DNA from: Thermoplasmata archaeon | GTDB lineage: Archaea > Thermoplasmatota > SW-10-69-26 > JACQPN01 > JAJPHT01 | DNA length: 64,000 nucleotides | Direction: 5' to 3' | Assembly (NCBI GenBank): GCA_034667685.1 | Contig: JAXDQU010000079.1 | Coordinates: 33,891-97,890, forward strand | Shown here: positions 1,835 through 63,578 of the stretch, piece by piece | How positions within the stretch are numbered: position 1 is the first letter of the stretch | How the letters are laid out: each line of letters begins with the position of its first letter | Position numbers and translations under genes: made by a program | The notes under the pieces: generated by a model | Seen by the model: only the letters and a program-made list of their open reading frames with translations | The model's database searches: none | What the model was told of the DNA's origin: nothing

Positions 1835-3103
1835 CTACTGCGGCGCGACGCCGAGAATGATCTCGGTGATGCCCTCCGGCTGCCAGTCGACGAGGCTGCG
1901 TCCGTCGAGAAGGATCGCGCCGTCCGACGTGGGGACGCGCCCGACGGCGGGAAGGAGCTCGGCCCCTCCGCGTGACCACGCGGGCGGGAGGTTGCCCAGC
2001 CCGAGCGCGAGCATGCCAAGATTTCGATAGCTCGTGGCGCCGGTCCCGTTGAACGAGAGGTGGGCCACGACCTCGCCGTCGACGACGGTCAGGACGCGGA
2101 CGCGGCTGGCCGGGGCTCCCGTTCCGGCGTCGGCGCCGCCGGAGCGGTCCCCGTCGGCCGCGCCGTCTCGCGTCCATGCATGCCACTGGGCCACGGGATC
2201 GCTGCTGGCAGCCCCGATCTGCACGATGCCGAGGAAGGTCAGATCCGGCAGGGCGGTCCCTTCGATCGATTCCGTCGCCGTGGGAGGCGGATCCAGGCCC
2301 GTGCGCGGCGTCCCGAAGCCGGCGGAGGCGGCGGACGTCTGCGTCGAGACCTCGAGCCAACGGCCCGCGTGGGAATCGAACTCCACGCGGTGGGCGGACG
2401 CGACGTTCAGGACGCTGCTGGCGAATTCGGAGAGGCCGAGCGGCGGGTCCGCGCGCGCGCTCACGAAGGAGAAGAACGAGGCCGCGGGCTGCGCGCTCGC
2501 GTTTCCGACGAACCGGATGCCGAGAGCGAAGCTGACGTTGCTGGGCCAGCGCAGGACGGCGTTCGCGCCCCCCTCGCCCCGGAGAAGGAAGCCGACGTCG
2601 AGGCTGACCGGGTCGCCGTCGCTCAGGTGGCGCGCCGGGAATTCGAGGATCGCAGGCGCGAAGTCCGGCGTCACCTGCGCGATGGAGGCGAGCCCCGCTT
2701 GGGCGCCGCGAACCGTGGCCGGGACGGACTCCGCCACGCCCAGGGGAACGGGATGCCCCGCGCCGTCGGCGCGGAAGAGCGCGAGCGTCCAGCCCTCGAC
2801 GTGGTCGCGGTCCGGCGGCACGGGGAACGTCGGCGCGACCTCGATGCGGAGGACCGGGCCTCTCGCGGAGGGCACGATGGCGCCCTGCGGAACGTGGACC
2901 TCAAGCACGTCCGAAGGGAACGGCCCGCTGCCCACCAGCGAAAGCACGATCGAATCGTCGAGCGCGGGATGGTCGTTGAACGGCCGTGCATGGACCCTGG
3001 CCAGGAACATGGAGGCCTCCGTCGGCGTGAGACGGCCCGGTCCGGGTGCGACGGCGCACCCTGCCAAGGCCACGAACGCCAGGACCAGCCCGAGTCGCCG
3101 CAT
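1835..3103 (-). CDS. Lipoprotein, hypothetical. Signal peptide MRRLGLVLAFVALAGC with a lipobox
   Basis: ORF 1835..3127. The second Met gives a canonical lipoprotein signal peptide with LAGC. Confidence 0.6.
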   Translation of the reverse strand: MRRLGLVLAFVALAGCAVAPGPGRLTPTEASMFLARVHARPFNDHPALDDSIVLSLVGSGPFPSDVLEVHVPQGAIVPSARGPVLRIEVAPTFPVPPDRDHVEGWTLALFRADGAGHPVPLGVAESVPATVRGAQAGLASIAQVTPDFAPAILEFPARHLSDGDPVSLDVGFLLRGEGGANAVLRWPSNVSFALGIRFVGNASAQPAASFFSFVSARADPPLGLSEFASSVLNVASAHRVEFDSHAGRWLEVSTQTSAASAGFGTPRTGLDPPPTATESIEGTALPDLTFLGIVQIGAASSDPVAQWHAWTRDGAADGDRSGGADAGTGAPASRVRVLTVVDGEVVAHLSFNGTGATSYRNLGMLALGLGNLPPAWSRGGAELLPAVGRVPTSDGAILLDGRSLVDWQPEGITEIILGVAPQ

Positions 3104-3145
3104 GCCCTTCCCGTCTCGCCAAGACATTCCGATCCGGCCTGAACG

Positions 3146-20892: not shown

Positions 20893-22473
20893 ATGAAGGG
20901 CACCTCTGCCGCGCTCCTCCTCGTCGCCATGATGCTGGGCGCCGGCTGCCTCGCCTCCACCGAGACGCCCGCCTCGACCTCCGCCGCCGCGGGCGTCGGC
21001 GCCACCGTGAAGACGGCCGCCGCGCTCGCCTTCACCGCGGGCGACAACCTCTCCGGCGCGCCCATCGCGGGCGTCGTGCCGGCGACGCTCTACATCAAGC
21101 ACGACGGGGGCGAGCCCACCCTCGGCATCACGAAGGACGGCACGCTCTTCTACGCGGGCGCCACGTTCAAGAACGATATCGCGGGCCAGGACGTCTGCGC
21201 CAGCCAGCCCGTCGTGGGCGCGCCGGCGTGCCTGCCGCGCACCGACATCCTGCGCAGCAGCGACGGGGGGAAGACCTGGAAGGACGTCACGCCCTACCTG
21301 CCCGGCGGCCTCGTGCGCGAGCACCCCGACACGGGCGATCCGTACGTCTACGTCGACCCCGCGACCTCGCGCGTCTTCGACATCGACCAGCGCCTCTCGA
21401 CCACGTGCCACACGGTCACGTACAGCGACGACAAGGGCGACTCGTGGGACCCGGTGGACGCGAAGGCGTGCCAGTCGCCGCCCGCGGACCACCAGACGAT
21501 CGTGGCCGCCAAGCCCCGCCTGATCCCGGCGATGCCCGTCTACCCCGAGATCGTCTACTACTGCAACAACCAGATCGCCGCGTCCTCGTGCGCGCGCAGC
21601 CTGGATGGCGGCCAGACGTTCACCGCGACGCCGCCCCCCTTCCTGGGCGTCGAGAGCGACACGAGCGTCGCCCCCAACATGACGGACCCGACCAACCCCG
21701 ATATCAACAACCTCTGCGGCGGCCTGCACGGCCACCTGAAGGCGGCGCCCGACGGCACGGTCTACCTGCCCAAGGCGCAGTGCGGCCGCGCGATGGTCGC
21801 CGTCACGCAGGACGACGGCACCTCGTGGACGGCGCAGACCGTCAGCGACATGCCCGCCACGGGCGACCCGAGCGTCGCGGTCGACAAGGCCGGCACGGCG
21901 TACTACCTCTTCCTGGGCGCGAAGGACCTCCACGTCTACCTGGCGAGCAGCAAGGACGCGGGCGCCCACTGGACGAAGCCCGTGGACGTGACCGCGCCGG
22001 GCATCGCGATCGCCAACCTGCCGCAGATCACGGCCGGCGATGCGGGCCGCGTGGCGCTGGCCTACGTGGGCACGACGACCAAGGACGCCTACAAGATCCC
22101 CGACAACGACACGAGCGCGCTCAACAACGAGACGTGGGACGGCTACCTCTCCATCATCACGGGCGCCGACACCGCGAAGCCCGGCGTCGTCACCACGCGC
22201 GTGAACGACGCGGGCGACCCGCTCGTGCGCGGTCCGTGCGGGCCCGGCCGCTGCCGCAGCCTCTTCGACTTCCTCGACGTGCAGATGGACGCCGACGGCC
22301 GCCCGTGGGTCGCCATGGTCGACAACTGCATGGACAACTGCAGCAAGGCCGACGGCACCGCGAAGGAGAGCACCGCGTCGGCGGGCTTCGTGGCGACGCT
22401 CGCCGAGGGCCCGGGCCTCCTGGCCAACGAGATCGCGCTGCCGCCGATCCACGCCGCTGGGAAATCGGGCTGA
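20893..22473 (+). CDS. BNR/sialidase-like beta-propeller lipoprotein (paralog A)
   Basis: Signal peptide MKGTSAALLLVAMMLGAGC. BNR motifs SSDGGKTW, SDDKGDSW, SLDGGQTF, QDDGTSW, SKDAGAHW. Confidence 0.75.
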   Translation: MKGTSAALLLVAMMLGAGCLASTETPASTSAAAGVGATVKTAAALAFTAGDNLSGAPIAGVVPATLYIKHDGGEPTLGITKDGTLFYAGATFKNDIAGQDVCASQPVVGAPACLPRTDILRSSDGGKTWKDVTPYLPGGLVREHPDTGDPYVYVDPATSRVFDIDQRLSTTCHTVTYSDDKGDSWDPVDAKACQSPPADHQTIVAAKPRLIPAMPVYPEIVYYCNNQIAASSCARSLDGGQTFTATPPPFLGVESDTSVAPNMTDPTNPDINNLCGGLHGHLKAAPDGTVYLPKAQCGRAMVAVTQDDGTSWTAQTVSDMPATGDPSVAVDKAGTAYYLFLGAKDLHVYLASSKDAGAHWTKPVDVTAPGIAIANLPQITAGDAGRVALAYVGTTTKDAYKIPDNDTSALNNETWDGYLSIITGADTAKPGVVTTRVNDAGDPLVRGPCGPGRCRSLFDFLDVQMDADGRPWVAMVDNCMDNCSKADGTAKESTASAGFVATLAEGPGLLANEIALPPIHAAGKSG

Positions 22474-23752: not shown

Positions 23753-23817
23753 CCTGCTCCGCCGGAGGCGGCCCGCACTACAAGAAACGCTAAGAGCCCG
23801 GCGCGGGTGCGAAACGC

Positions 23818-25380
23818 ATGCGTCTCGGCGCCCTCGCGCTCCTCTCCATGCTCCTCGCGGCCGGCTGCGTCACGTCGAACGCGCCGGGCGCCACGACCCA
23901 GCCTCCCGGCGCGGTGGGCGCCACCTTCGCCACGGCCGACGCCATCGTGCACGTCGCGGGCGACAACGCCTCGGGCCGCCTCGCCTCGGGCATCCTGCCC
24001 GCGAGCTTCCTCGTGAACCACGACGCCGGCGAGCCGACGCTGGGCGTGGCCAAGGACGGCGCGCTCTACTACGCGGCCGTCACGTTCCAGAACGACGTCG
24101 CCGGCCAGCCCGCGTGCGCCCCCGAGACGCCCATCAGCGGCGGCACGTGCCTGCCGCGCACGGACATCCTCAAGTCGGTCGACGGCGGCAAGACGTGGAA
24201 GGACGTCACGCCCTACTTCCCCGGCGGCGCGGTGCGCATGCACCCCGAGACGGGCGACGGCTACGTCTACGTCGACGCGGAGACGGGCCGCATCTTCGAC
24301 GTCGACCAGGAGGGCCTCGTCACGTGCTACAACCTCGCGTACAGCGACGACGGGGGCGCCTCGTGGATGGGCGACTTCCCCGCGTGCCAGTCGCCGCCCG
24401 CGGACCACCAGACGATCGTCGCCGCCAAGCCGCGCCTGCTGCCCGCGAGCCCCGCCTACCCGAAGATCGTCTACGTCTGCTACAACCAGATCGCCACCTC
24501 GACGTGCGTGCGCAGCGTGGACGGCGGCGTCAACTTCGCCACGACGGGCCCCGTGGGCGACGCGGGCGCCGACCCGAGCCAGGGCGCCGGCACGAAGGCC
24601 GTGTGCAGCGCGCTCGTGGGGCACCTCAAGGCCGCGCCCGACGGCACGGTCTATCTTCCGCGCCGCCAGTGCGACCTCCCCGAGGTCGCCGTGACGCAGG
24701 ACGACGGCACCACGTGGAGCCTCGTCCAGGTCTCCGACGTCAAGACGTACTACGGCGGCGGCACCGTGGGCATGGACCCCGCGGTGGCCGTGGACGCCAA
24801 GGGGACGGCGTACTACGTCTTCGAGGGCGCGGACGGCCACATGTGGCTCTCGCACAGCAAGGACGCCGGCAAGACGTGGAGCAAGGCGCAGGACGTGACG
24901 GGCCCCGGCCTCACGGTCGCCAACCTCGCGGCGCTCACCGCAGGCGATGCCGGCCGCGTGGCGCTCACCTACGTCGCGTCCAACGTGCCGGGCGGCTACG
25001 CGGCCAAGCAGGAGGCGATGGACAACGCGACTTGGGACGGATTCCTCAGCGTCATCGTCGGCGCGGACACCGACAAGCCCACGCTCACCACCGTGCGCAT
25101 CAACCCGGGTGACGACCCGCTGGTGCGCGGCGCGTGCGGGCCGGGCCGCTGCAAGAACCCGGGCCTCGTGGACTTCCTCGACGTGCAGATGGACCCGCGC
25201 GACGGCCGCCCCTGGGCGAGCTTCGTGGACAACTGCGTCGAGAAGTGCGCCATGCCCAACGGCACGGCCAAGGACTCGACGGGCGACAAGGGCTTCGTGG
25301 CGACCCTGGCGAGCGGGCCTTCGCTCCTGGAGAAGGTCGGGACGCTCGGGCCGATCCTGCCGGCTTCGAAGAGCGGCTGA
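23818..25380 (+). CDS. BNR/sialidase-like beta-propeller lipoprotein (paralog B)
   Basis: Signal peptide MRLGALALLSMLLAAGC. Collinear and roughly 60% identical to 20893..22473 (LPRTDILKSVDGGKTWKDVTPY etc.). Confidence 0.75.
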   Translation: MRLGALALLSMLLAAGCVTSNAPGATTQPPGAVGATFATADAIVHVAGDNASGRLASGILPASFLVNHDAGEPTLGVAKDGALYYAAVTFQNDVAGQPACAPETPISGGTCLPRTDILKSVDGGKTWKDVTPYFPGGAVRMHPETGDGYVYVDAETGRIFDVDQEGLVTCYNLAYSDDGGASWMGDFPACQSPPADHQTIVAAKPRLLPASPAYPKIVYVCYNQIATSTCVRSVDGGVNFATTGPVGDAGADPSQGAGTKAVCSALVGHLKAAPDGTVYLPRRQCDLPEVAVTQDDGTTWSLVQVSDVKTYYGGGTVGMDPAVAVDAKGTAYYVFEGADGHMWLSHSKDAGKTWSKAQDVTGPGLTVANLAALTAGDAGRVALTYVASNVPGGYAAKQEAMDNATWDGFLSVIVGADTDKPTLTTVRINPGDDPLVRGACGPGRCKNPGLVDFLDVQMDPRDGRPWASFVDNCVEKCAMPNGTAKDSTGDKGFVATLASGPSLLEKVGTLGPILPASKSG

Positions 25381-56765: not shown

Positions 56766-57047
56766 ATGGCGGGGATCACGCTCACGCTGCCGCGCTCCTT
56801 GCGCGACTACTGGGCCGGGGACCCCGAGGTCCGCCTCGAGGCGAAGACGCTCGCCGAGGCGCTCGCGGAGGTGGGCCGCCGATGGCCCGGCCTCGCCGAG
56901 CGCATCCTCGACGACGCGGGCCGCGTGCGCCCGCACGTCGGCCTCTTCGTCAACGCGCTTCCGGTGATGCACCGCGACCCGCGCGAGGTCGGCCTGGCCG
57001 AGGGTGATATCATCCGCGTGCTGCCCGCCGTGAGTGGAGGATGCTGA
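56766..57047 (+). CDS. MoaD/ThiS-like ubiquitin-fold sulfur carrier (SAMP-like) ending in GGC
   Basis: MAGITLTLPRSLRDYWAG...EGDIIRVLPAVSGGC: beta-grasp pattern, with a C-terminal Gly-Gly followed by one extra Cys. Confidence 0.55.
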   Translation: MAGITLTLPRSLRDYWAGDPEVRLEAKTLAEALAEVGRRWPGLAERILDDAGRVRPHVGLFVNALPVMHRDPREVGLAEGDIIRVLPAVSGGC

Positions 57048-58140
57048 GTTGGTGTCGAAGGGCGAGACGGTCGTGGTCGTCGGAACGCGCAAGGGACTCT
57101 TCGTCGCGCACAGCCGCGACCGGCGCCGCTGGAAGATGGACGGCCCCTTCTTCGAGGGCATCGAGGTGCCGCACGCCTTCCTCGACCCGCGCGACGGCAA
57201 GACCGTCTGGGCCGCGCCGCACAGCATGCACTGGGGGCCCACCGTGCGCGCCACGAAGGACTGGGGCAAGCGCTGGACCAAGCCCGCCTCGGGCCCGAAG
57301 TACCGCGAAGGGAGCGGCCTCTCCGTGGCCAAGGTCTGGCACGTGGAGCCCGGCCTCGAAGGCGACCTGTGGGCGGGCGTGGAGCCCGCGGGCCTCTTCC
57401 GCAGCGTGGACGGCGGCGCGAGCTGGGAAGGCGTCGACGGCTTCAACGACCAGCCCACGCGCAAGGACTGGACGCCCGGAGGCGGCGGTCTCTGCCTCCA
57501 CACGATTCTGCCCTACCCCGGAGAGCCGAAGCGCATGGTCGCGTCCGCGAGCGCCGTGGGCATCTTCGGCACGAACGACGGCGGCGCCTCGTGGCGCGTC
57601 ATGAACGGCGGCATCCGCGCGGACCACCTGCCCGCCGGCAAGCTCGACGAGGGCATGATCGGCTCCTGCCCGCACAAGCTCGTGCGCGACGCGAAGGACC
57701 CCGCGACGCTCTACATGCAGAACCACTTCGGGATCTACAGGCGCAAGCGCGGCGACGCGGCGTGGACCGACATCAGCAAGGGGCTGCCCAGCCGCTTCGG
57801 CTTCCCGATGGTCGCGCATCCGCACGACGCGGGCACCGTCTACACCGTGCCGCTGGAGGCCGATAGCAATCGCGTGACGCCCGAGGGCGCGATGGCCGTG
57901 TGGCGCACGAAGAACGGCGGCAAGACGTGGCAGCGCCTCAGCAAGGGCCTGCCGCAGAAGGGCGCGTACCACACGATCCTGCGCGAGGGCATGGCGACCG
58001 ACGGCAAGGACCCCGCGGGCCTCTACGTCGGCACGACGACCGGGCAGCTCTACGCGAGCCGCGACGAGGGCGCGGCGTGGACCGAGATCGCCGCGACGCT
58101 GCCGCCGATCCTCAGCGTCGAAGCGGGCATCGCGCGATAG
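57034..58140 (+). CDS. BNR/Ycf48-like beta-propeller protein
   Basis: SVDGGASW, TNDGGASW, TKNGGKTW and SRDEGAAW BNR-like motifs. GTG start overlapping the MoaD-like stop. Confidence 0.6.
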   Translation: MEDAELVSKGETVVVVGTRKGLFVAHSRDRRRWKMDGPFFEGIEVPHAFLDPRDGKTVWAAPHSMHWGPTVRATKDWGKRWTKPASGPKYREGSGLSVAKVWHVEPGLEGDLWAGVEPAGLFRSVDGGASWEGVDGFNDQPTRKDWTPGGGGLCLHTILPYPGEPKRMVASASAVGIFGTNDGGASWRVMNGGIRADHLPAGKLDEGMIGSCPHKLVRDAKDPATLYMQNHFGIYRRKRGDAAWTDISKGLPSRFGFPMVAHPHDAGTVYTVPLEADSNRVTPEGAMAVWRTKNGGKTWQRLSKGLPQKGAYHTILREGMATDGKDPAGLYVGTTTGQLYASRDEGAAWTEIAATLPPILSVEAGIAR

Positions 58141-59381: not shown

Positions 59382-59585
59382 ATGCGAGCCATGTCCCTTG
59401 TCCTCGTCGGCGCGCTGCTGGCGATGGCCGTCGTGTCCTTCGTCCCCTCGGCGTCCGCGACCTGCGACCCGCGCGACCCGTCCCAGACCGTCCCGTGCGT
59501 CGAGGACTTCGTCGTCAACGGCGGCTGCATGGTGAACCCGCTCTACGGCACCGTGCCCAAGCAGGCCGAGTACCAGTGCTGGTAG
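59382..59585 (+). CDS. Small secreted Cys-containing peptide, hypothetical
   Basis: Signal peptide MRAMSLVLVGALLAMAVVSFVPSASA plus 40 aa with five Cys. Weak. Confidence 0.3.
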   Translation: MRAMSLVLVGALLAMAVVSFVPSASATCDPRDPSQTVPCVEDFVVNGGCMVNPLYGTVPKQAEYQCW

Positions 59586-59843: not shown

Positions 59844-60686
59844 ATGCGTCGGGCGCTCGTCCTGATGGTCCTCGTTCTCGCCGCGGCGCCGCTCGCGCAG
59901 GCGCAGTCCGCCATGCGCCTCGACGTCGCTCCCTTCACGGGCCCGCAGCCGGTGCTCCGGAACCTGACGGTGGCCGCGTCGGTCGTGGTGCCCTGCTCGG
60001 TCCTCCAGAACGGGACCGCGTCGGGCGTCGTCGCGCTGCTCGGCGCGCCCAGCTGGCTGACGATGGAGCCCAACGGGACGGAGTTCACGGTGGGCCCGTG
60101 CGGCGCGGACCCGCAGGTGGCGGACCTCCAGCTCACGCTGCGCCTCGACGCCGACGCGCCCGCGCTGGCAGGCGCGAACGCGGTGCTCGAAGCGCGCCTC
60201 CTGGGGCAGCGCGCCGACGCCTCGTTCCCCGTGACGGCGGCCATCTACACGCTCGTGGACGTCTCGCCCGACCGCACGCTGCTCCAGGGCAAGCCGCAGA
60301 GCGTGCTCACGTTCCCGATCCACGTGCGCAACCTGGGCAACGCCGTGACGCGCGTGACGTTCGACGTCGCCGACGCGCCGGCGGGGTGGATCGTGCTCCA
60401 GCCGCAGCCCGTCACGCTCCAGAGCCGGCAGGAGGGCGGGCTCGTCACGGAGGGGACGGTGAACCTCGTCGTGCAGACGCCGCACCGCTTCGGCTCGATC
60501 GACGAGTCCGCGACGCTCCACGTGCACGCCATCGCCGCGCCCGCGCTGGGCTCCGGCCCCAGCGAGGAATCGAACCTGACGCTGACCGCGACGGCGAAGG
60601 GATTCGACGCGCCGGGGCCGGGCGTGCCGCTGCTCGTCGTGGGGCTCGTGGCGGCGGCCGCGCTACTTCGCAAACGCCTGCCGTAG
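59844..60686 (+). CDS. Secreted protein with a C-terminal PGPG-hydrophobic-KRLP sorting-signal-like tail (paralog 1)
   Basis: Signal peptide [20 protein letters not shown], beta-rich body, C-terminus [25 protein letters not shown] (PGF-CTERM-like). Confidence 0.6.
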
Positions 60687-62594
60687 GCGCTCCACCACGG
60701 CGGGATCGGCGAGCGTCGTCGCGTCGCCCGCGGGCCTGCCCTCGGCCACGTCGCGCAGCAGGCGGCGCATGATCTTCCCGCTGCGCGTCTTGGGGAGGTC
60801 GGGCGTGAGGATCACGCGCTCGGGGCGCGCGATGGCGCCCAACGTCTTGGCGACGTGCTCGCGGAGGTCGGCTTCGCGGACCTCCGCGCCCGCGCGAGGG
60901 ATGACGTAGGCGACGATGGCCTCGCCCTTGATCGGGTCGTGCTTGCCGATGACGGCGGCCTCGGCGACGGCGGGGTGGCTCACGAGCGCGCTCTCGACCT
61001 CCATCGTGCCGATGCGGTGGCCGGCGACCTTGATCACGTCGTCCACGCGCCCGAGGATCATGTAGTAGCCGCGGTCGCGCTTGGCGCCGTCCTTCGGGAA
61101 GTAGGCGCCGGGGAAGCGGCTCCAGTATTCCTTTTGATAGCGCCCGTCGTCGTTCCACAGCGTGCGGAACATCGCGGGCCACGGCTTCTTGAGCACGAGG
61201 TAGCCGCCCGCGTGCGGGTCGTCCACGGGCTGGCCCTGCTCGTCGAGGATGTCGGCCTCCACGCCCGGAAATGGGCGTCCGGCGAAGCCCGGCCGCGCGG
61301 GGTCGACGCCGGGCAGCGTGGTGATCATGATCATGCCCGTCTCGGTCTGCCACCACGTGTCCACGATGGGGCAGCGTCCGCCGCCGATGCGCTCGCGGTA
61401 CCACATCCACGCCTCGGGGTTGATCGGCTCGCCCACGGTGCCCAGGAGGCGCAGCGTGGAGAGGTCGTGGCGCGCGGGCCACTCCGGGCCCCACTGCATG
61501 AACTGACGGATCGCGGTGGGCGCCGTGTAGAAGATGGTCACGCCGTGCTTCTGCACGATGTCCCAGAAGCGCCCCTTGTCGGGGAAGTCGGGCGAGCCTT
61601 CGTACATCACGACGGTGGCGCCGTTGGCGAGGGGCCCGTAGACGACGTAGCTGTGGCCCGTGACCCAGCCGCAGTCCGCCGTGCAGAAGTAGATATCATC
61701 TTCGCGCAGGTCGAAGACCATCTTCGTCGTCGCGTACACGCCCGTGAGGTAGCCGCCGGTGGTGTGCAGCACGCCCTTGGGCTTGCCCGTCGTGCCGCTG
61801 GTGTAGAGCGTGTAGAGCGGGTCCTCGGCGTCCATGGGCTCGGGCGGAGCGTGCTCGCTCTGCGAGGGGACGAGGTCGTGCCACCACACGTCGCGGCGCG
61901 GCGTCATGGGCACCTCCTTCCCCGTGCGGCGCAGCACGAGCACGCGCTCGATGGTGGGGCATTGCGCGACGGCCTCGTCCACCGTGAGCTTGAGCGGCAC
62001 CACGTTCCCGCGGCGGTAGCCCCCGTCGGCCGTGATCACGAGCTTAGCGCCCGCGTCCTGGACGCGGCTGGCGAGCGCCTGCGCGCTGAAGCCGCCGAAG
62101 ACGACGCTGTGGATCGCGCCCACGTGCGCGCACGCGAGCATCGCGATCGCGATCTCGGGCACCATGGGCAGGTAGATCGCGACGCGGTCGCCCTTGGCGA
62201 TGCCCAGCTCCCGGAGCGCGTTGGCGAGCTTGCCGACCTCGCGCGAAAGCTCGGCGTAGGTGAGCGTACGCGTCTCGCCTGGCTCCCCCTCCCACACGAT
62301 CGCGGGCTTGGCGCGCCGGGGACCGCGCGCGTGGCGGTGGGCGCAGTTCTCCGCGACGTTGAGCTTGCCGCCGACGAACCACTTCGCGTGCGGCGGGTCC
62401 CACTCCAGGACGTTTTGCCACGGGCGGATCCAGAGCAGCTCCCGGGCGAGGTCGCTCCAGAACGTCTCGGGGTCCGCCGCGGCGCGCGCGTACACGTCGG
62501 GGTCGCGCACGAGCGCCTGGTCGCGGAACGCGGGCGGGGGCGGGAAGGCGCGCTCCTCCGCGAGCAGCGACTCGATGGTCGGCGCGTCCGGCAT
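60663..62594 (-). CDS. acs: Acetyl-CoA synthetase (AMP-forming)
   Basis: Full-length ACS: [12 protein letters not shown] (AMP-binding), [23 protein letters not shown]. Confidence 0.95.
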
Positions 62595-62666
62595 CGAGCC
62601 TCAAGCAAGGCGACGGCAAGCTTGATGTTGCCGCTTGGCGAGCGGCCCTTCGTGCGCGGCGCGCCC

Positions 62667-63578
62667 ATGATCCTCGTCCTGCTGGCTCTTCCGCTCGTGG
62701 CGGCGCAGCCCGGCCCGCTCGCGGCGCCCGCCGTCTCGCTGATGCCGGACCCGCCCAAGGACCCGATCCAGCCCCTCGCCGGCGCGGTCAGCTTCCCCGT
62801 GCGCGTGCACCTGACGTGCGACGCCTCGAACGCGGGCCAGCCGATCCACCTCGCGTTCCGCGTCACGCGCTCGCCCGCGTGGGCGACGCCGGTCCTCTCG
62901 CCCACCTCGATGGACGCGGACGGCTCGACGTGCGCGCAGCAGGGCGGCGTCGACCTGAGCCTCTCGGTCAACGTCCAGGCCAGCGACCAGGCGCCGGCGT
63001 TCGTCCCCGACGCGCTGGAGATCGACGCGCTCGCCGACGAGCCCTTCCACGCGACGGGCGAGACGAAGGCGACGACGCAGATCGCGGCCGGCTACTTCTC
63101 GATCATCGACGCGAGCGCGCCCGAGACGGAGCGCGGCCTCCCGCCGGGCGGCATCACGACCTTCCCCGTCGACTTCACCAACATGGGCAACGGGGCGACG
63201 AAGATCGTCTTCGAGACCGCGACGACCAGCCGGGACGTCATCGCCGTGGCGCCCACGCCGATCGTGCTCCAGAGCAAGCAGACTGGCGGGACGCAGATCG
63301 GCGCCGTCGTGCCGCTCCAGGTCCACCGCGCCGCCGACTCGCCGCGCACGCAGGAGACGGTCACGCTCCGCTGGCGCGCCTCCTACGCGCTCGACGGCAA
63401 GCTCGCGGGAGACAGCGGCGTGCTGACCTTCGTCGTGGGCAACGGCGCCGCGGCGCCCGACACGCGGCAGCAGGCCGACGACGCGCTCAACCAGGTCAAG
63501 CAGGCGCCCGGGCCGGGCCTCGGGATGCTCGTGCCCGCGCTCGCCGGCCTCGCGATGCTGGCGCGCCGCCTGCGCTAA
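62667..63578 (+). CDS. Secreted protein with a C-terminal PGPG-hydrophobic-RRLR tail (paralog 2)
   Basis: Signal peptide MILVLLALPLVAAQP, same architecture as 59844..60686, C-terminus APGPGLGMLVPALAGLAMLARRLR. An alternative start at 62625 is possible. Confidence 0.6.
   Translation: MILVLLALPLVAAQPGPLAAPAVSLMPDPPKDPIQPLAGAVSFPVRVHLTCDASNAGQPIHLAFRVTRSPAWATPVLSPTSMDADGSTCAQQGGVDLSLSVNVQASDQAPAFVPDALEIDALADEPFHATGETKATTQIAAGYFSIIDASAPETERGLPPGGITTFPVDFTNMGNGATKIVFETATTSRDVIAVAPTPIVLQSKQTGGTQIGAVVPLQVHRAADSPRTQETVTLRWRASYALDGKLAGDSGVLTFVVGNGAAAPDTRQQADDALNQVKQAPGPGLGMLVPALAGLAMLARRLR

Follow-up and report, generated by a model that had tools for sequence, protein, structure and literature searches.

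The 64,000-nucleotide stretch of DNA analyzed here (hereafter, the window; 72% GC) belongs to the metagenome-assembled genome (MAG) of an uncultured soil Thermoplasmata archaeon and encodes, close to its right end, two paralogous secreted proteins whose genes flank acs, the gene for acetyl-CoA synthetase. The original prediction had drawn attention to the C-terminal tails of these proteins, in which a PGPG motif is followed by a hydrophobic stretch and a basic end. The paralogs are membrane-anchored surface proteins of Thermoplasmata with two immunoglobulin (Ig)-like domains each (the fold was modeled for paralog 1), and alignments with their relatives and with a haloarchaeal S-layer glycoprotein indicate that the tails correspond to archaeosortase signals of the PGF-CTERM class, with proline in place of phenylalanine.

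Two secreted paralogs and their family

The two genes are collinear on the plus strand and end at positions 60686 and 63578, as had been proposed: the open reading frames (ORFs), their GC content at third codon positions (GC3) and the similarity between the two proteins (BLASTP E-value of 8e-14, 26% identity across 237 residues) all bear this out (Table 1). The GC3 of both is like that of the other genes in the window, whereas the long ORF that holds paralog 2 has a GC3 of only 0.69 where it runs antisense to acs. The possibility that these are chance ORFs was rejected given their coding composition, the existence of homologs and the confident fold. At NCBI, the identical proteins are QOE90_2498 (paralog 1) and QOE90_2500 (paralog 2), from 'Thermoplasmata archaeon', a name that also confirms the archaeal source presumed from the sequence. 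The lengths called there are 333 and 317 amino acids (aa), respectively, with both starts further upstream; the upstream extension of paralog 1 has a poor coding composition (GC3 of 0.78). For paralog 2, the alternative starts are ATG 62667, which yields 303 aa, and the NCBI choice, ATG 62625, but the GTG at 62652 is the more likely start because the N-terminus then reads MRGAPMILVLL, with the basic n-region that a signal peptide should have and a match to the homolog P0006, MRGAWLLLVLL.

The layout is the same in both proteins: the signal peptide is followed by two beta-sandwich domains of the Ig-like type and then by the C-terminal tail. On inspection, the N-termini consist of MRR, a hydrophobic core and AQA in paralog 1, and of MRG, a hydrophobic core and VAA in paralog 2 with its GTG start, so that both paralogs carry the Sec signal peptide that is typical of PGF-CTERM substrates. 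The AlphaFold2 model, built for paralog 1 only from a 148-sequence alignment, has a predicted local distance difference test (pLDDT) score of 95.1 and includes a helix at either end (Table 1), with strands between residues 25 and 255 that form two sandwiches, at about 25-132 and 138-255. The combination of a signal peptide and a beta-rich body that had been read from the sequence is thus upheld. The second domain bears a T-N-x-G-N-x-T strand motif, and in paralog 2 a linker of roughly 20 residues precedes the tail. Paralog 1 contains four N-x-S/T sequons, at residues 40, 56, 77 and 244, with the same positions occupied in orthologs, and is probably an N-glycosylated extracellular protein; no such sequon is present in paralog 2. 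A Foldseek structure search returned generic tandem Ig-like, ASH and adhesin folds alone, with no functional lead, and a Pfam scan detected no domain in the window paralogs. As a separate observation, conservation at the end of the signal peptide is higher than is usual for such an element: P16 and A20, within L-A-P-x-A-x-A-Q, are present in at least 90% of the 148 relatives.

The paralogs belong to a large, unnamed and uncharacterized protein family that is centered on Thermoplasmatota. When 1.84 billion cluster representatives were searched exhaustively with a profile, 1,563 clusters were matched at an E-value of 1e-3 or lower and 188 at 1e-30 or lower, nearly all of them ~280-330 aa long and aligned from the signal peptide through the tail. 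Word-indexed protein searches recovered four to five relatives each and a third one, run with the 148-sequence profile, six proteins, and scans of genomes and metagenomes with a narrower family alignment recovered 5 and 10 loci, respectively. All seven members with a named source come from MAGs labeled Thermoplasmata, Candidatus Thermoplasmatota or Euryarchaeota, and four of the five loci from GTDB genomes are labeled Thermoplasmatota, Thermoplasmata or Euryarchaeota. The fifth (L009/L016, contig JAJPHT010000031.1), which also bears a family member, is labeled 'Proteobacteria bacterium Centralia_MAG_189'; this contig is probably mis-binned because all other named members carry Thermoplasmatota, Thermoplasmata or Euryarchaeota labels. 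The numbers L001 onwards denote the loci retrieved in the analysis, L003 being the JGI copy of the window locus.

Table 1. Features of the acs locus and of related loci (window coordinates unless a locus number is given)
Feature	Coordinates	Strand	Description and basis
Paralog 1 (QOE90_2498)	59844..60686	+	280 aa from ATG 59844; ORF translation, GC3 0.96, 100% match to P0001
Predicted signal peptide, paralog 1	59844..59903	+	Inspection and AlphaFold2 helix 2-17; predicted cleavage after A-Q-A
Tail of paralog 1	60609..60683	+	A-P-G-P-G, 16-residue hydrophobic helix, R-K-R-L-P; model helix 261-277
Paralog 2 (QOE90_2500)	62652..63578	+	308 aa from GTG 62652; GC3 0.98
Tail of paralog 2	63504..63575	+	A-P-G-P-G, 16-residue hydrophobic helix, R-R-L-R
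acs, acetyl-CoA synthetase	60663..62594	-	643 aa; the identical L003 gene has the Pfam domains ACAS_N, AMP-binding and AMP-binding_C
Small Cys-rich secreted ORF	59382..59585	+	64-67 aa, directly upstream of paralog 1; GC3 0.97; 64-aa JGI gene at L003 6767-6961
Conserved cluster beside family genes	L001 3678-6976; L002 2317-5584; L008 10983-12269		

The C-terminal tail and its conservation

The tail of paralog 2 reads, in full, APGPGLGMLVPALAGLAMLARRLR, that is, APGPG-LGMLVPALAGLAMLA-RRLR. In both paralogs, the motif abuts the transmembrane (TM) helix without a spacer and is followed by a basic cluster and the stop codon, at the extreme C-terminus; the arrangement described in the original prediction is thus found in both translations, in the layout of the archaeosortase signals. 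When all six frames were scanned with a regular expression for a motif, a TM segment and a basic tail, the window yielded solely these two tails. The sequence PGPG is rare, with three occurrences in the ~14,850 aa of the window proteins; two of these are the paralog tails, which share it by descent rather than by independent origin. The third lies in a predicted lipoprotein (window 1835-3145, minus strand), directly after the lipobox (LAGC-AVAPGPG-RLTPTE). All three sites thus adjoin a membrane anchor; PGPG may be a favored membrane-proximal linker, unless this is due to chance.

The tail is conserved in a few columns only. The nine closest relatives have tails starting with APGPGV, APSPAL, TPGPAL, TPSPPL, VPTPTF, VPGPEP, VPGPGL or APSPGP, and the only invariant tail columns among them are P257, P259 and A272 (paralog 1 numbering), with G, S or T in the middle of P-x-P and with the rest of the helix variable. 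Across the alignment of 148 relatives, where the mean column identity is 22%, position 257 is P in 142 sequences, position 258 is G in 78, A in 41 and S in 10, position 259 is P in 90, A in 18 and F in 12, position 272 is A in 125 (A or G in 136), and the basic pair at 276 and 277 is R in 139 and 131, respectively. The spacing between the proline and the basic pair has a sharp maximum at 19 residues, compared with 20, by our own count, in the PGF-CTERM tail of Haloferax. PGPG as such, which had been put forward as the signature, does not hold up family-wide: only the first proline is near-invariant (96%), and the third residue is P in 61% of the sequences, A in 12% and F in 8%.

The relatives with F at this position display the canonical PGF-type signature, that is, VPGF[DE], a helix and RR or KK, and their F falls in the same alignment column as the P of PGP. 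When eight of the VPGF[DE] tails were compared with the curated models of sorting signals, two passed, one with Loki-CTERM (28.0 bits against a cutoff of 19.9) and the other with Heimdall-CTERM (26.5 against 24), and a third reached 21.3 bits with PGF_CTERM, for which the cutoff is 24.5; with the PGF models, one or two relatives at most reach an E-value of 0.01. In a comparison of the family profile with the PDB sequences, 'yvPgp...A..rRR' was aligned to NTPGFGIAVALVALVGAALLALRR of the S-layer glycoprotein from Haloferax volcanii (7ptp, E-value of 0.013); in the summarized segment, 'vPgp...A..rRR' against TPGFGIAVALVALVGAALLALRR, P-g-p is paired with P-G-F, and the Ala that the family conserves is paired with an Ala. 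It is because of this alignment, beyond mere resemblance, that PGP can be said to stand where PGF stands. The proposed substitution of PGPG for PGF therefore holds in so far as the two share a column in the relatives and are in register with Haloferax, but the window tails themselves fail every curated model.

Some of the relatives have lost the motif altogether. In the low-GC loci L010 and L017-L020, it is replaced by a plain anchor of 24 residues, in contrast to the hydrophobic stretch of 16 residues in the window tails; given this longer anchor, a decayed tail within the same family differs from the tails of the window. Conversely, close homologs with a similar GC content (69-70%) alternate between the two forms of the motif, with VPGFELP in L014 and VPGPELG in L015.

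Processed signal or plain anchor

Under the reading we favor, both proteins would be exported via the Sec pathway and held at the outside of the cytoplasmic membrane, with the C-terminal module (Pro-small-Pro, a helix of ~16 residues with a conserved Ala, the Arg pair and the end of the protein) serving as the anchor. This module would be the lineage-specific form of the PGF-CTERM class in this family, with P for F, and its reader would be a co-evolved intramembrane enzyme of the archaeosortase type, encoded at another site in the genome, which would cut at the motif and leave a lipid-anchored protein. A working signal is favored because Pro-x-Pro and the intramembrane Ala are retained while the helix turns over, because the helix is short and because the motif abuts it. 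According to Haft (bioRxiv 10.1101/2023.06.07.544157), sites that are conserved within helices of this kind are a sign of processing by an intramembrane enzyme, and a motif that abuts the helix without a spacer marks the signals cut by deeply embedded enzymes. We consider the chances about even that processing of the tail persists, with a co-evolved enzyme of the archaeosortase type reading it as a signal. A more specific proposal is advanced more tentatively, at somewhat less than even chances: in high-GC soil Thermoplasmatota, P-[GST]-P with a short helix and RR would function as a sorting signal that has not been described so far, read by a divergent archaeosortase that has co-evolved to dispense with Phe.

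Several lines of evidence weigh against a processed signal. With TIGR04126 (PGF_CTERM), paralog 1 scores 6.0 bits at full length and 10.3 bits with the tail alone, paralog 2 is not matched at all, and the Pfam scan found no PGF tail match in either protein; because the test by the defining hidden Markov model (HMM) fails, the tails are not members of PGF-CTERM as currently defined. None of the window tails reaches the cutoff of the other curated models either (PEF-, VPXXXP-, PEP-, MYXO-, Loki-, Heimdall- and PGAP-CTERM), the best scores being 14.9 bits with PEF-CTERM (cutoff of 23) and 13.6 bits with MYXO-CTERM (cutoff of 20); the best NCBIfam sorting-domain score for the tail of paralog 2 is 10 bits, with MYXO-CTERM. 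Among 98 tails of the family, ~90% have no curated sorting-signal match at an E-value of 1e-3 or lower. The second (G/A/S) and third (P/A/F/L/G/V) positions of the motif are loose family-wide, looser than in the established signals, and permutation of PGF blocks processing by ArtA in Haloferax, as cited in PMC12462473 (Abdul Halim et al. 2016, J Bacteriol). Paralog 1 lacks a Ser/Thr-rich linker ahead of the motif, and a proline at the start of the helix along with a basic end is also normal in plain type I anchors. Furthermore, the P tails occur in Arg-rich, high-GC members and the F tails in Lys-rich members (median K/(K+R) of 0.20 and 0.64, respectively), so that the F/P change could be, in part, compositional drift.

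The DNA of this genome that was examined amounts to ~74 kb, that is, the window and 10 kb of its right flank (L003), and no unrelated protein with the tail was found in it. Likewise, no Exosortase_EpsH/archaeosortase was found among the Pfam-annotated genes of window positions 888-21652 and ~52.6-64 kb and of the next 10 kb, or in Pfam scans of 10 multi-TM ORFs. Both of these negative results carry little weight because ~74 kb do not suffice to tell a processed signal from a plain anchor: if the tail were present in 1% of the genes, ~0.7 further cases would be expected there. A scan for the motif and hydrophobicity of every ORF in the window and 27 loci recovered the family members, one cupredoxin fragment and the motif-less anchor of an S8 peptidase. 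The unrelated cupredoxin fragment, which ends in SPGTQ-VLGVALAMIGAALLVA-RRQK, is encoded in L009, a related contig (72% GC) with a family member bearing VPGFEP, and is a possible positive case of an unrelated tail bearer. The S8 peptidase, a secreted subtilisin-like protein encoded in the 10 kb to the right of the window (L003 13318-15105), ends in a C-terminal helix and RARRA, without Pro-x-Pro; the genome thus also has a C-terminal anchor of another type, which again speaks against processing of the paralogs.

The main rival explanation, which appears quite possible though less likely than not, is that the tail descends from PGF-CTERM but is not processed in this high-GC lineage and serves as a plain C-terminal TM anchor, the paralogs being type I proteins with a cytoplasmic end of two to three residues; Pro-x-Pro would then be a rigid helix-capping junction, and the Ala would be kept so that the helix can pack, perhaps against another membrane protein as its partner. 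Such an anchor is what the failure with all curated sorting-signal models and the degeneracy of the motif across the family would lead one to expect; it is clearly used by the low-GC relatives, as well as, with RR but no motif, by the S8 peptidase, and it agrees with the absence of an archaeosortase from the ~74 kb. The split between P/Arg-rich and F/Lys-rich tails, too, fits the drift of an unconstrained position under GC pressure, but this pressure alone does not explain the change from F to P because PGF and PGP alternate between close homologs at similar GC, as in L014 and L015. Also in line with a plain anchor, a type I protein with a long cytoplasmic tail is encoded beside the family gene in L001, L002 and L008, and the L001 and L002 proteins have a similar G-[AF]-Y-[VL]-P junction; however, an hhalign comparison made to see whether the L001 neighbor is a paralog of the family was not significant (probability of 0.2%). 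Further points against a plain anchor are the invariance of P257, P259 and A272 among close relatives whose helices otherwise vary, and a hydrophobic stretch of 16 residues where the motif-less relatives have 24.

Two further explanations fare worse. The tail could be a sorting signal that is cleaved by an intramembrane protease other than an archaeosortase, of the rhomboid, CPBP/PrsW or M50 type, for which GlyGly-CTERM with rhombosortase and MYXO-CTERM with myxosortase provide precedents (Haft, bioRxiv 10.1101/2023.06.07.544157). In L002, the gene of a PrsW-type protease is located ~5 kb downstream of the family gene, and in L007 and L009, M50 peptidases are encoded within ~6 kb; in our literature searches, no paper linked archaeosortases with Thermoplasmatota, and the literature that was found ties these enzymes to halophiles and methanogens. 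However, such proteases are common housekeeping genes whose distance and identity vary from locus to locus, with no conserved adjacency, and the relatives bear canonical PGF-type tails, the known partner of archaeosortase A, all of which makes this explanation improbable. That the paralogs and acs form a functional unit, a surface module co-regulated with acetate activation, deserves hardly any credence. The genes are tightly packed, the 3' end of acs overlapping the last 24 nucleotides of paralog 1 in convergent orientation and a divergent gap of 57 nucleotides separating it from the GTG of paralog 2, and the arrangement recurs in L003. Yet, tblastn with acs detected no acs at any other locus carrying a family member, where the neighbors are unrelated, and the arrangement is confined to this strain and the identical metagenome contigs. 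The functional unit was rejected on the ground that the adjacency is not conserved in relatives; acs is not functionally tied to the paralogs.

If the P-for-F tails are indeed read by an archaeosortase-type enzyme, lipid anchoring of this type would extend to a phylum for which no report was found, and the third residue of the signature could shift from an aromatic residue to proline. Current annotation models would then overlook a whole class of archaeosortase substrates, the surface-protein inventories of uncultured Thermoplasmatota would be systematically incomplete, and the close homologs that differ only by PGF versus PGP would amount to a natural experiment on what an archaeosortase needs in its motif. 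If the tails are not processed, the family would document the decay of a sorting signal into a plain membrane anchor, which is of narrower interest.

Neighboring genes and known systems

As had been noted, the paralogs bracket acs in the opposite orientation to it: acs, on the minus strand, lies between the two plus-strand genes (Table 1). The neighbors of the family genes elsewhere include a four-gene surface-protein cluster, an SDR gene with a D-Ala-D-Ala ligase-like gene, and an MBL-fold gene. In three loci from other Thermoplasmatota (L001, L002 and L008), the gene after the family gene encodes a type I membrane protein of 430-490 aa with a Lys/Ala/Glu-rich cytoplasmic tail of ~190 aa; in L001 and L002, this gene precedes those of two lipoproteins, one of 250 aa and one with thrombospondin type 3-like repeats. 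This conserved cluster may be a cell-envelope module; no homolog of its genes is present in the window.

Several small secreted ORFs were noted. Apart from the Cys-rich one directly upstream of paralog 1, there is a second such ORF, of 97 aa, at L003 17075-17368 (minus strand), both with a clear signal peptide and neither assigned to a family. In L001, two further ORFs that are small and secreted (119-120 aa) lie ~1.8-2.6 kb upstream of the family gene. The window also encodes two paralogous BNR/sortilin-like beta-propeller lipoproteins (20900-22473 and 23794-25380, both on the plus strand; lipobox LGAGC and LAAGC, respectively) and a third BNR-like protein without a signal peptide (57034-58140, plus strand). 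Anchoring through a lipobox seems to be the common mode for the secreted proteins of the window. The ~1.2 kb between 58141 and 59381 contain no convincing ORF (best GC3 of 0.83, against at least 0.9 in the neighboring genes); JGI calls only one of 97 aa there, and an Rfam search at the gathering threshold found nothing.

Among the known systems, the closest is PGF-CTERM with ArtA (TIGR04126, PF18204), as represented by the S-layer glycoprotein of Haloferax volcanii. The shared features are a secreted archaeal surface protein, a P-G motif that abuts a short hydrophobic helix with an Arg cluster at the extreme C-terminus, a family profile in register with the Haloferax tail, and relatives with PGF in the same column. 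The differences lie in the third residue of the motif, which is Pro rather than Phe in the window, in the HMM scores below the cutoff, in the missing Ser/Thr-rich linker of paralog 1, and in that neither an ArtA gene nor a second tail-bearing family was seen in the ~74 kb examined. Loki-CTERM (NF033507) and Heimdall-CTERM (NF045529) recognize PGF-type tails of Thermoplasmatota family members, in contrast to the PGP tails of the window, which match neither model at an E-value of 10 or lower. As for the protein body, the T-N-x-G-N-x-T strand motif of the second domain is shared with the CARDB/NEW3/DUF11-type Ig-like domains of prokaryotic surface proteins, and a few relatives match them (FixG_C, NPCBM_assoc (NEW3) and the DUF11 repeat), whereas the paralogs have no Pfam match; the similarity does not go beyond the fold level, and no particular ligand or enzyme activity follows from it.

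The family is, finally, related to NF041740, 'choice-of-anchor T'. The beta-sandwich body of the paralogs aligns to positions 45-245 of the 259 in this profile, with scores of 23.2 and 18.1 bits (E-values of 3e-5 and 1e-3) that lie far below the cutoff of 70, and 124 of the 148 relatives match it at an E-value of 0.01 or lower, with the best at 4e-20. Because the window paralogs score below the cutoff while most of the relatives match, the family is best described as a distant sister group of NF041740 rather than a part of it. The 'choice-of-anchor' families, as their name has it, consist of homologs with differing C-terminal anchors, and the variation between PGF, PGP and plain TM tails in the present family agrees with that sense of the name.

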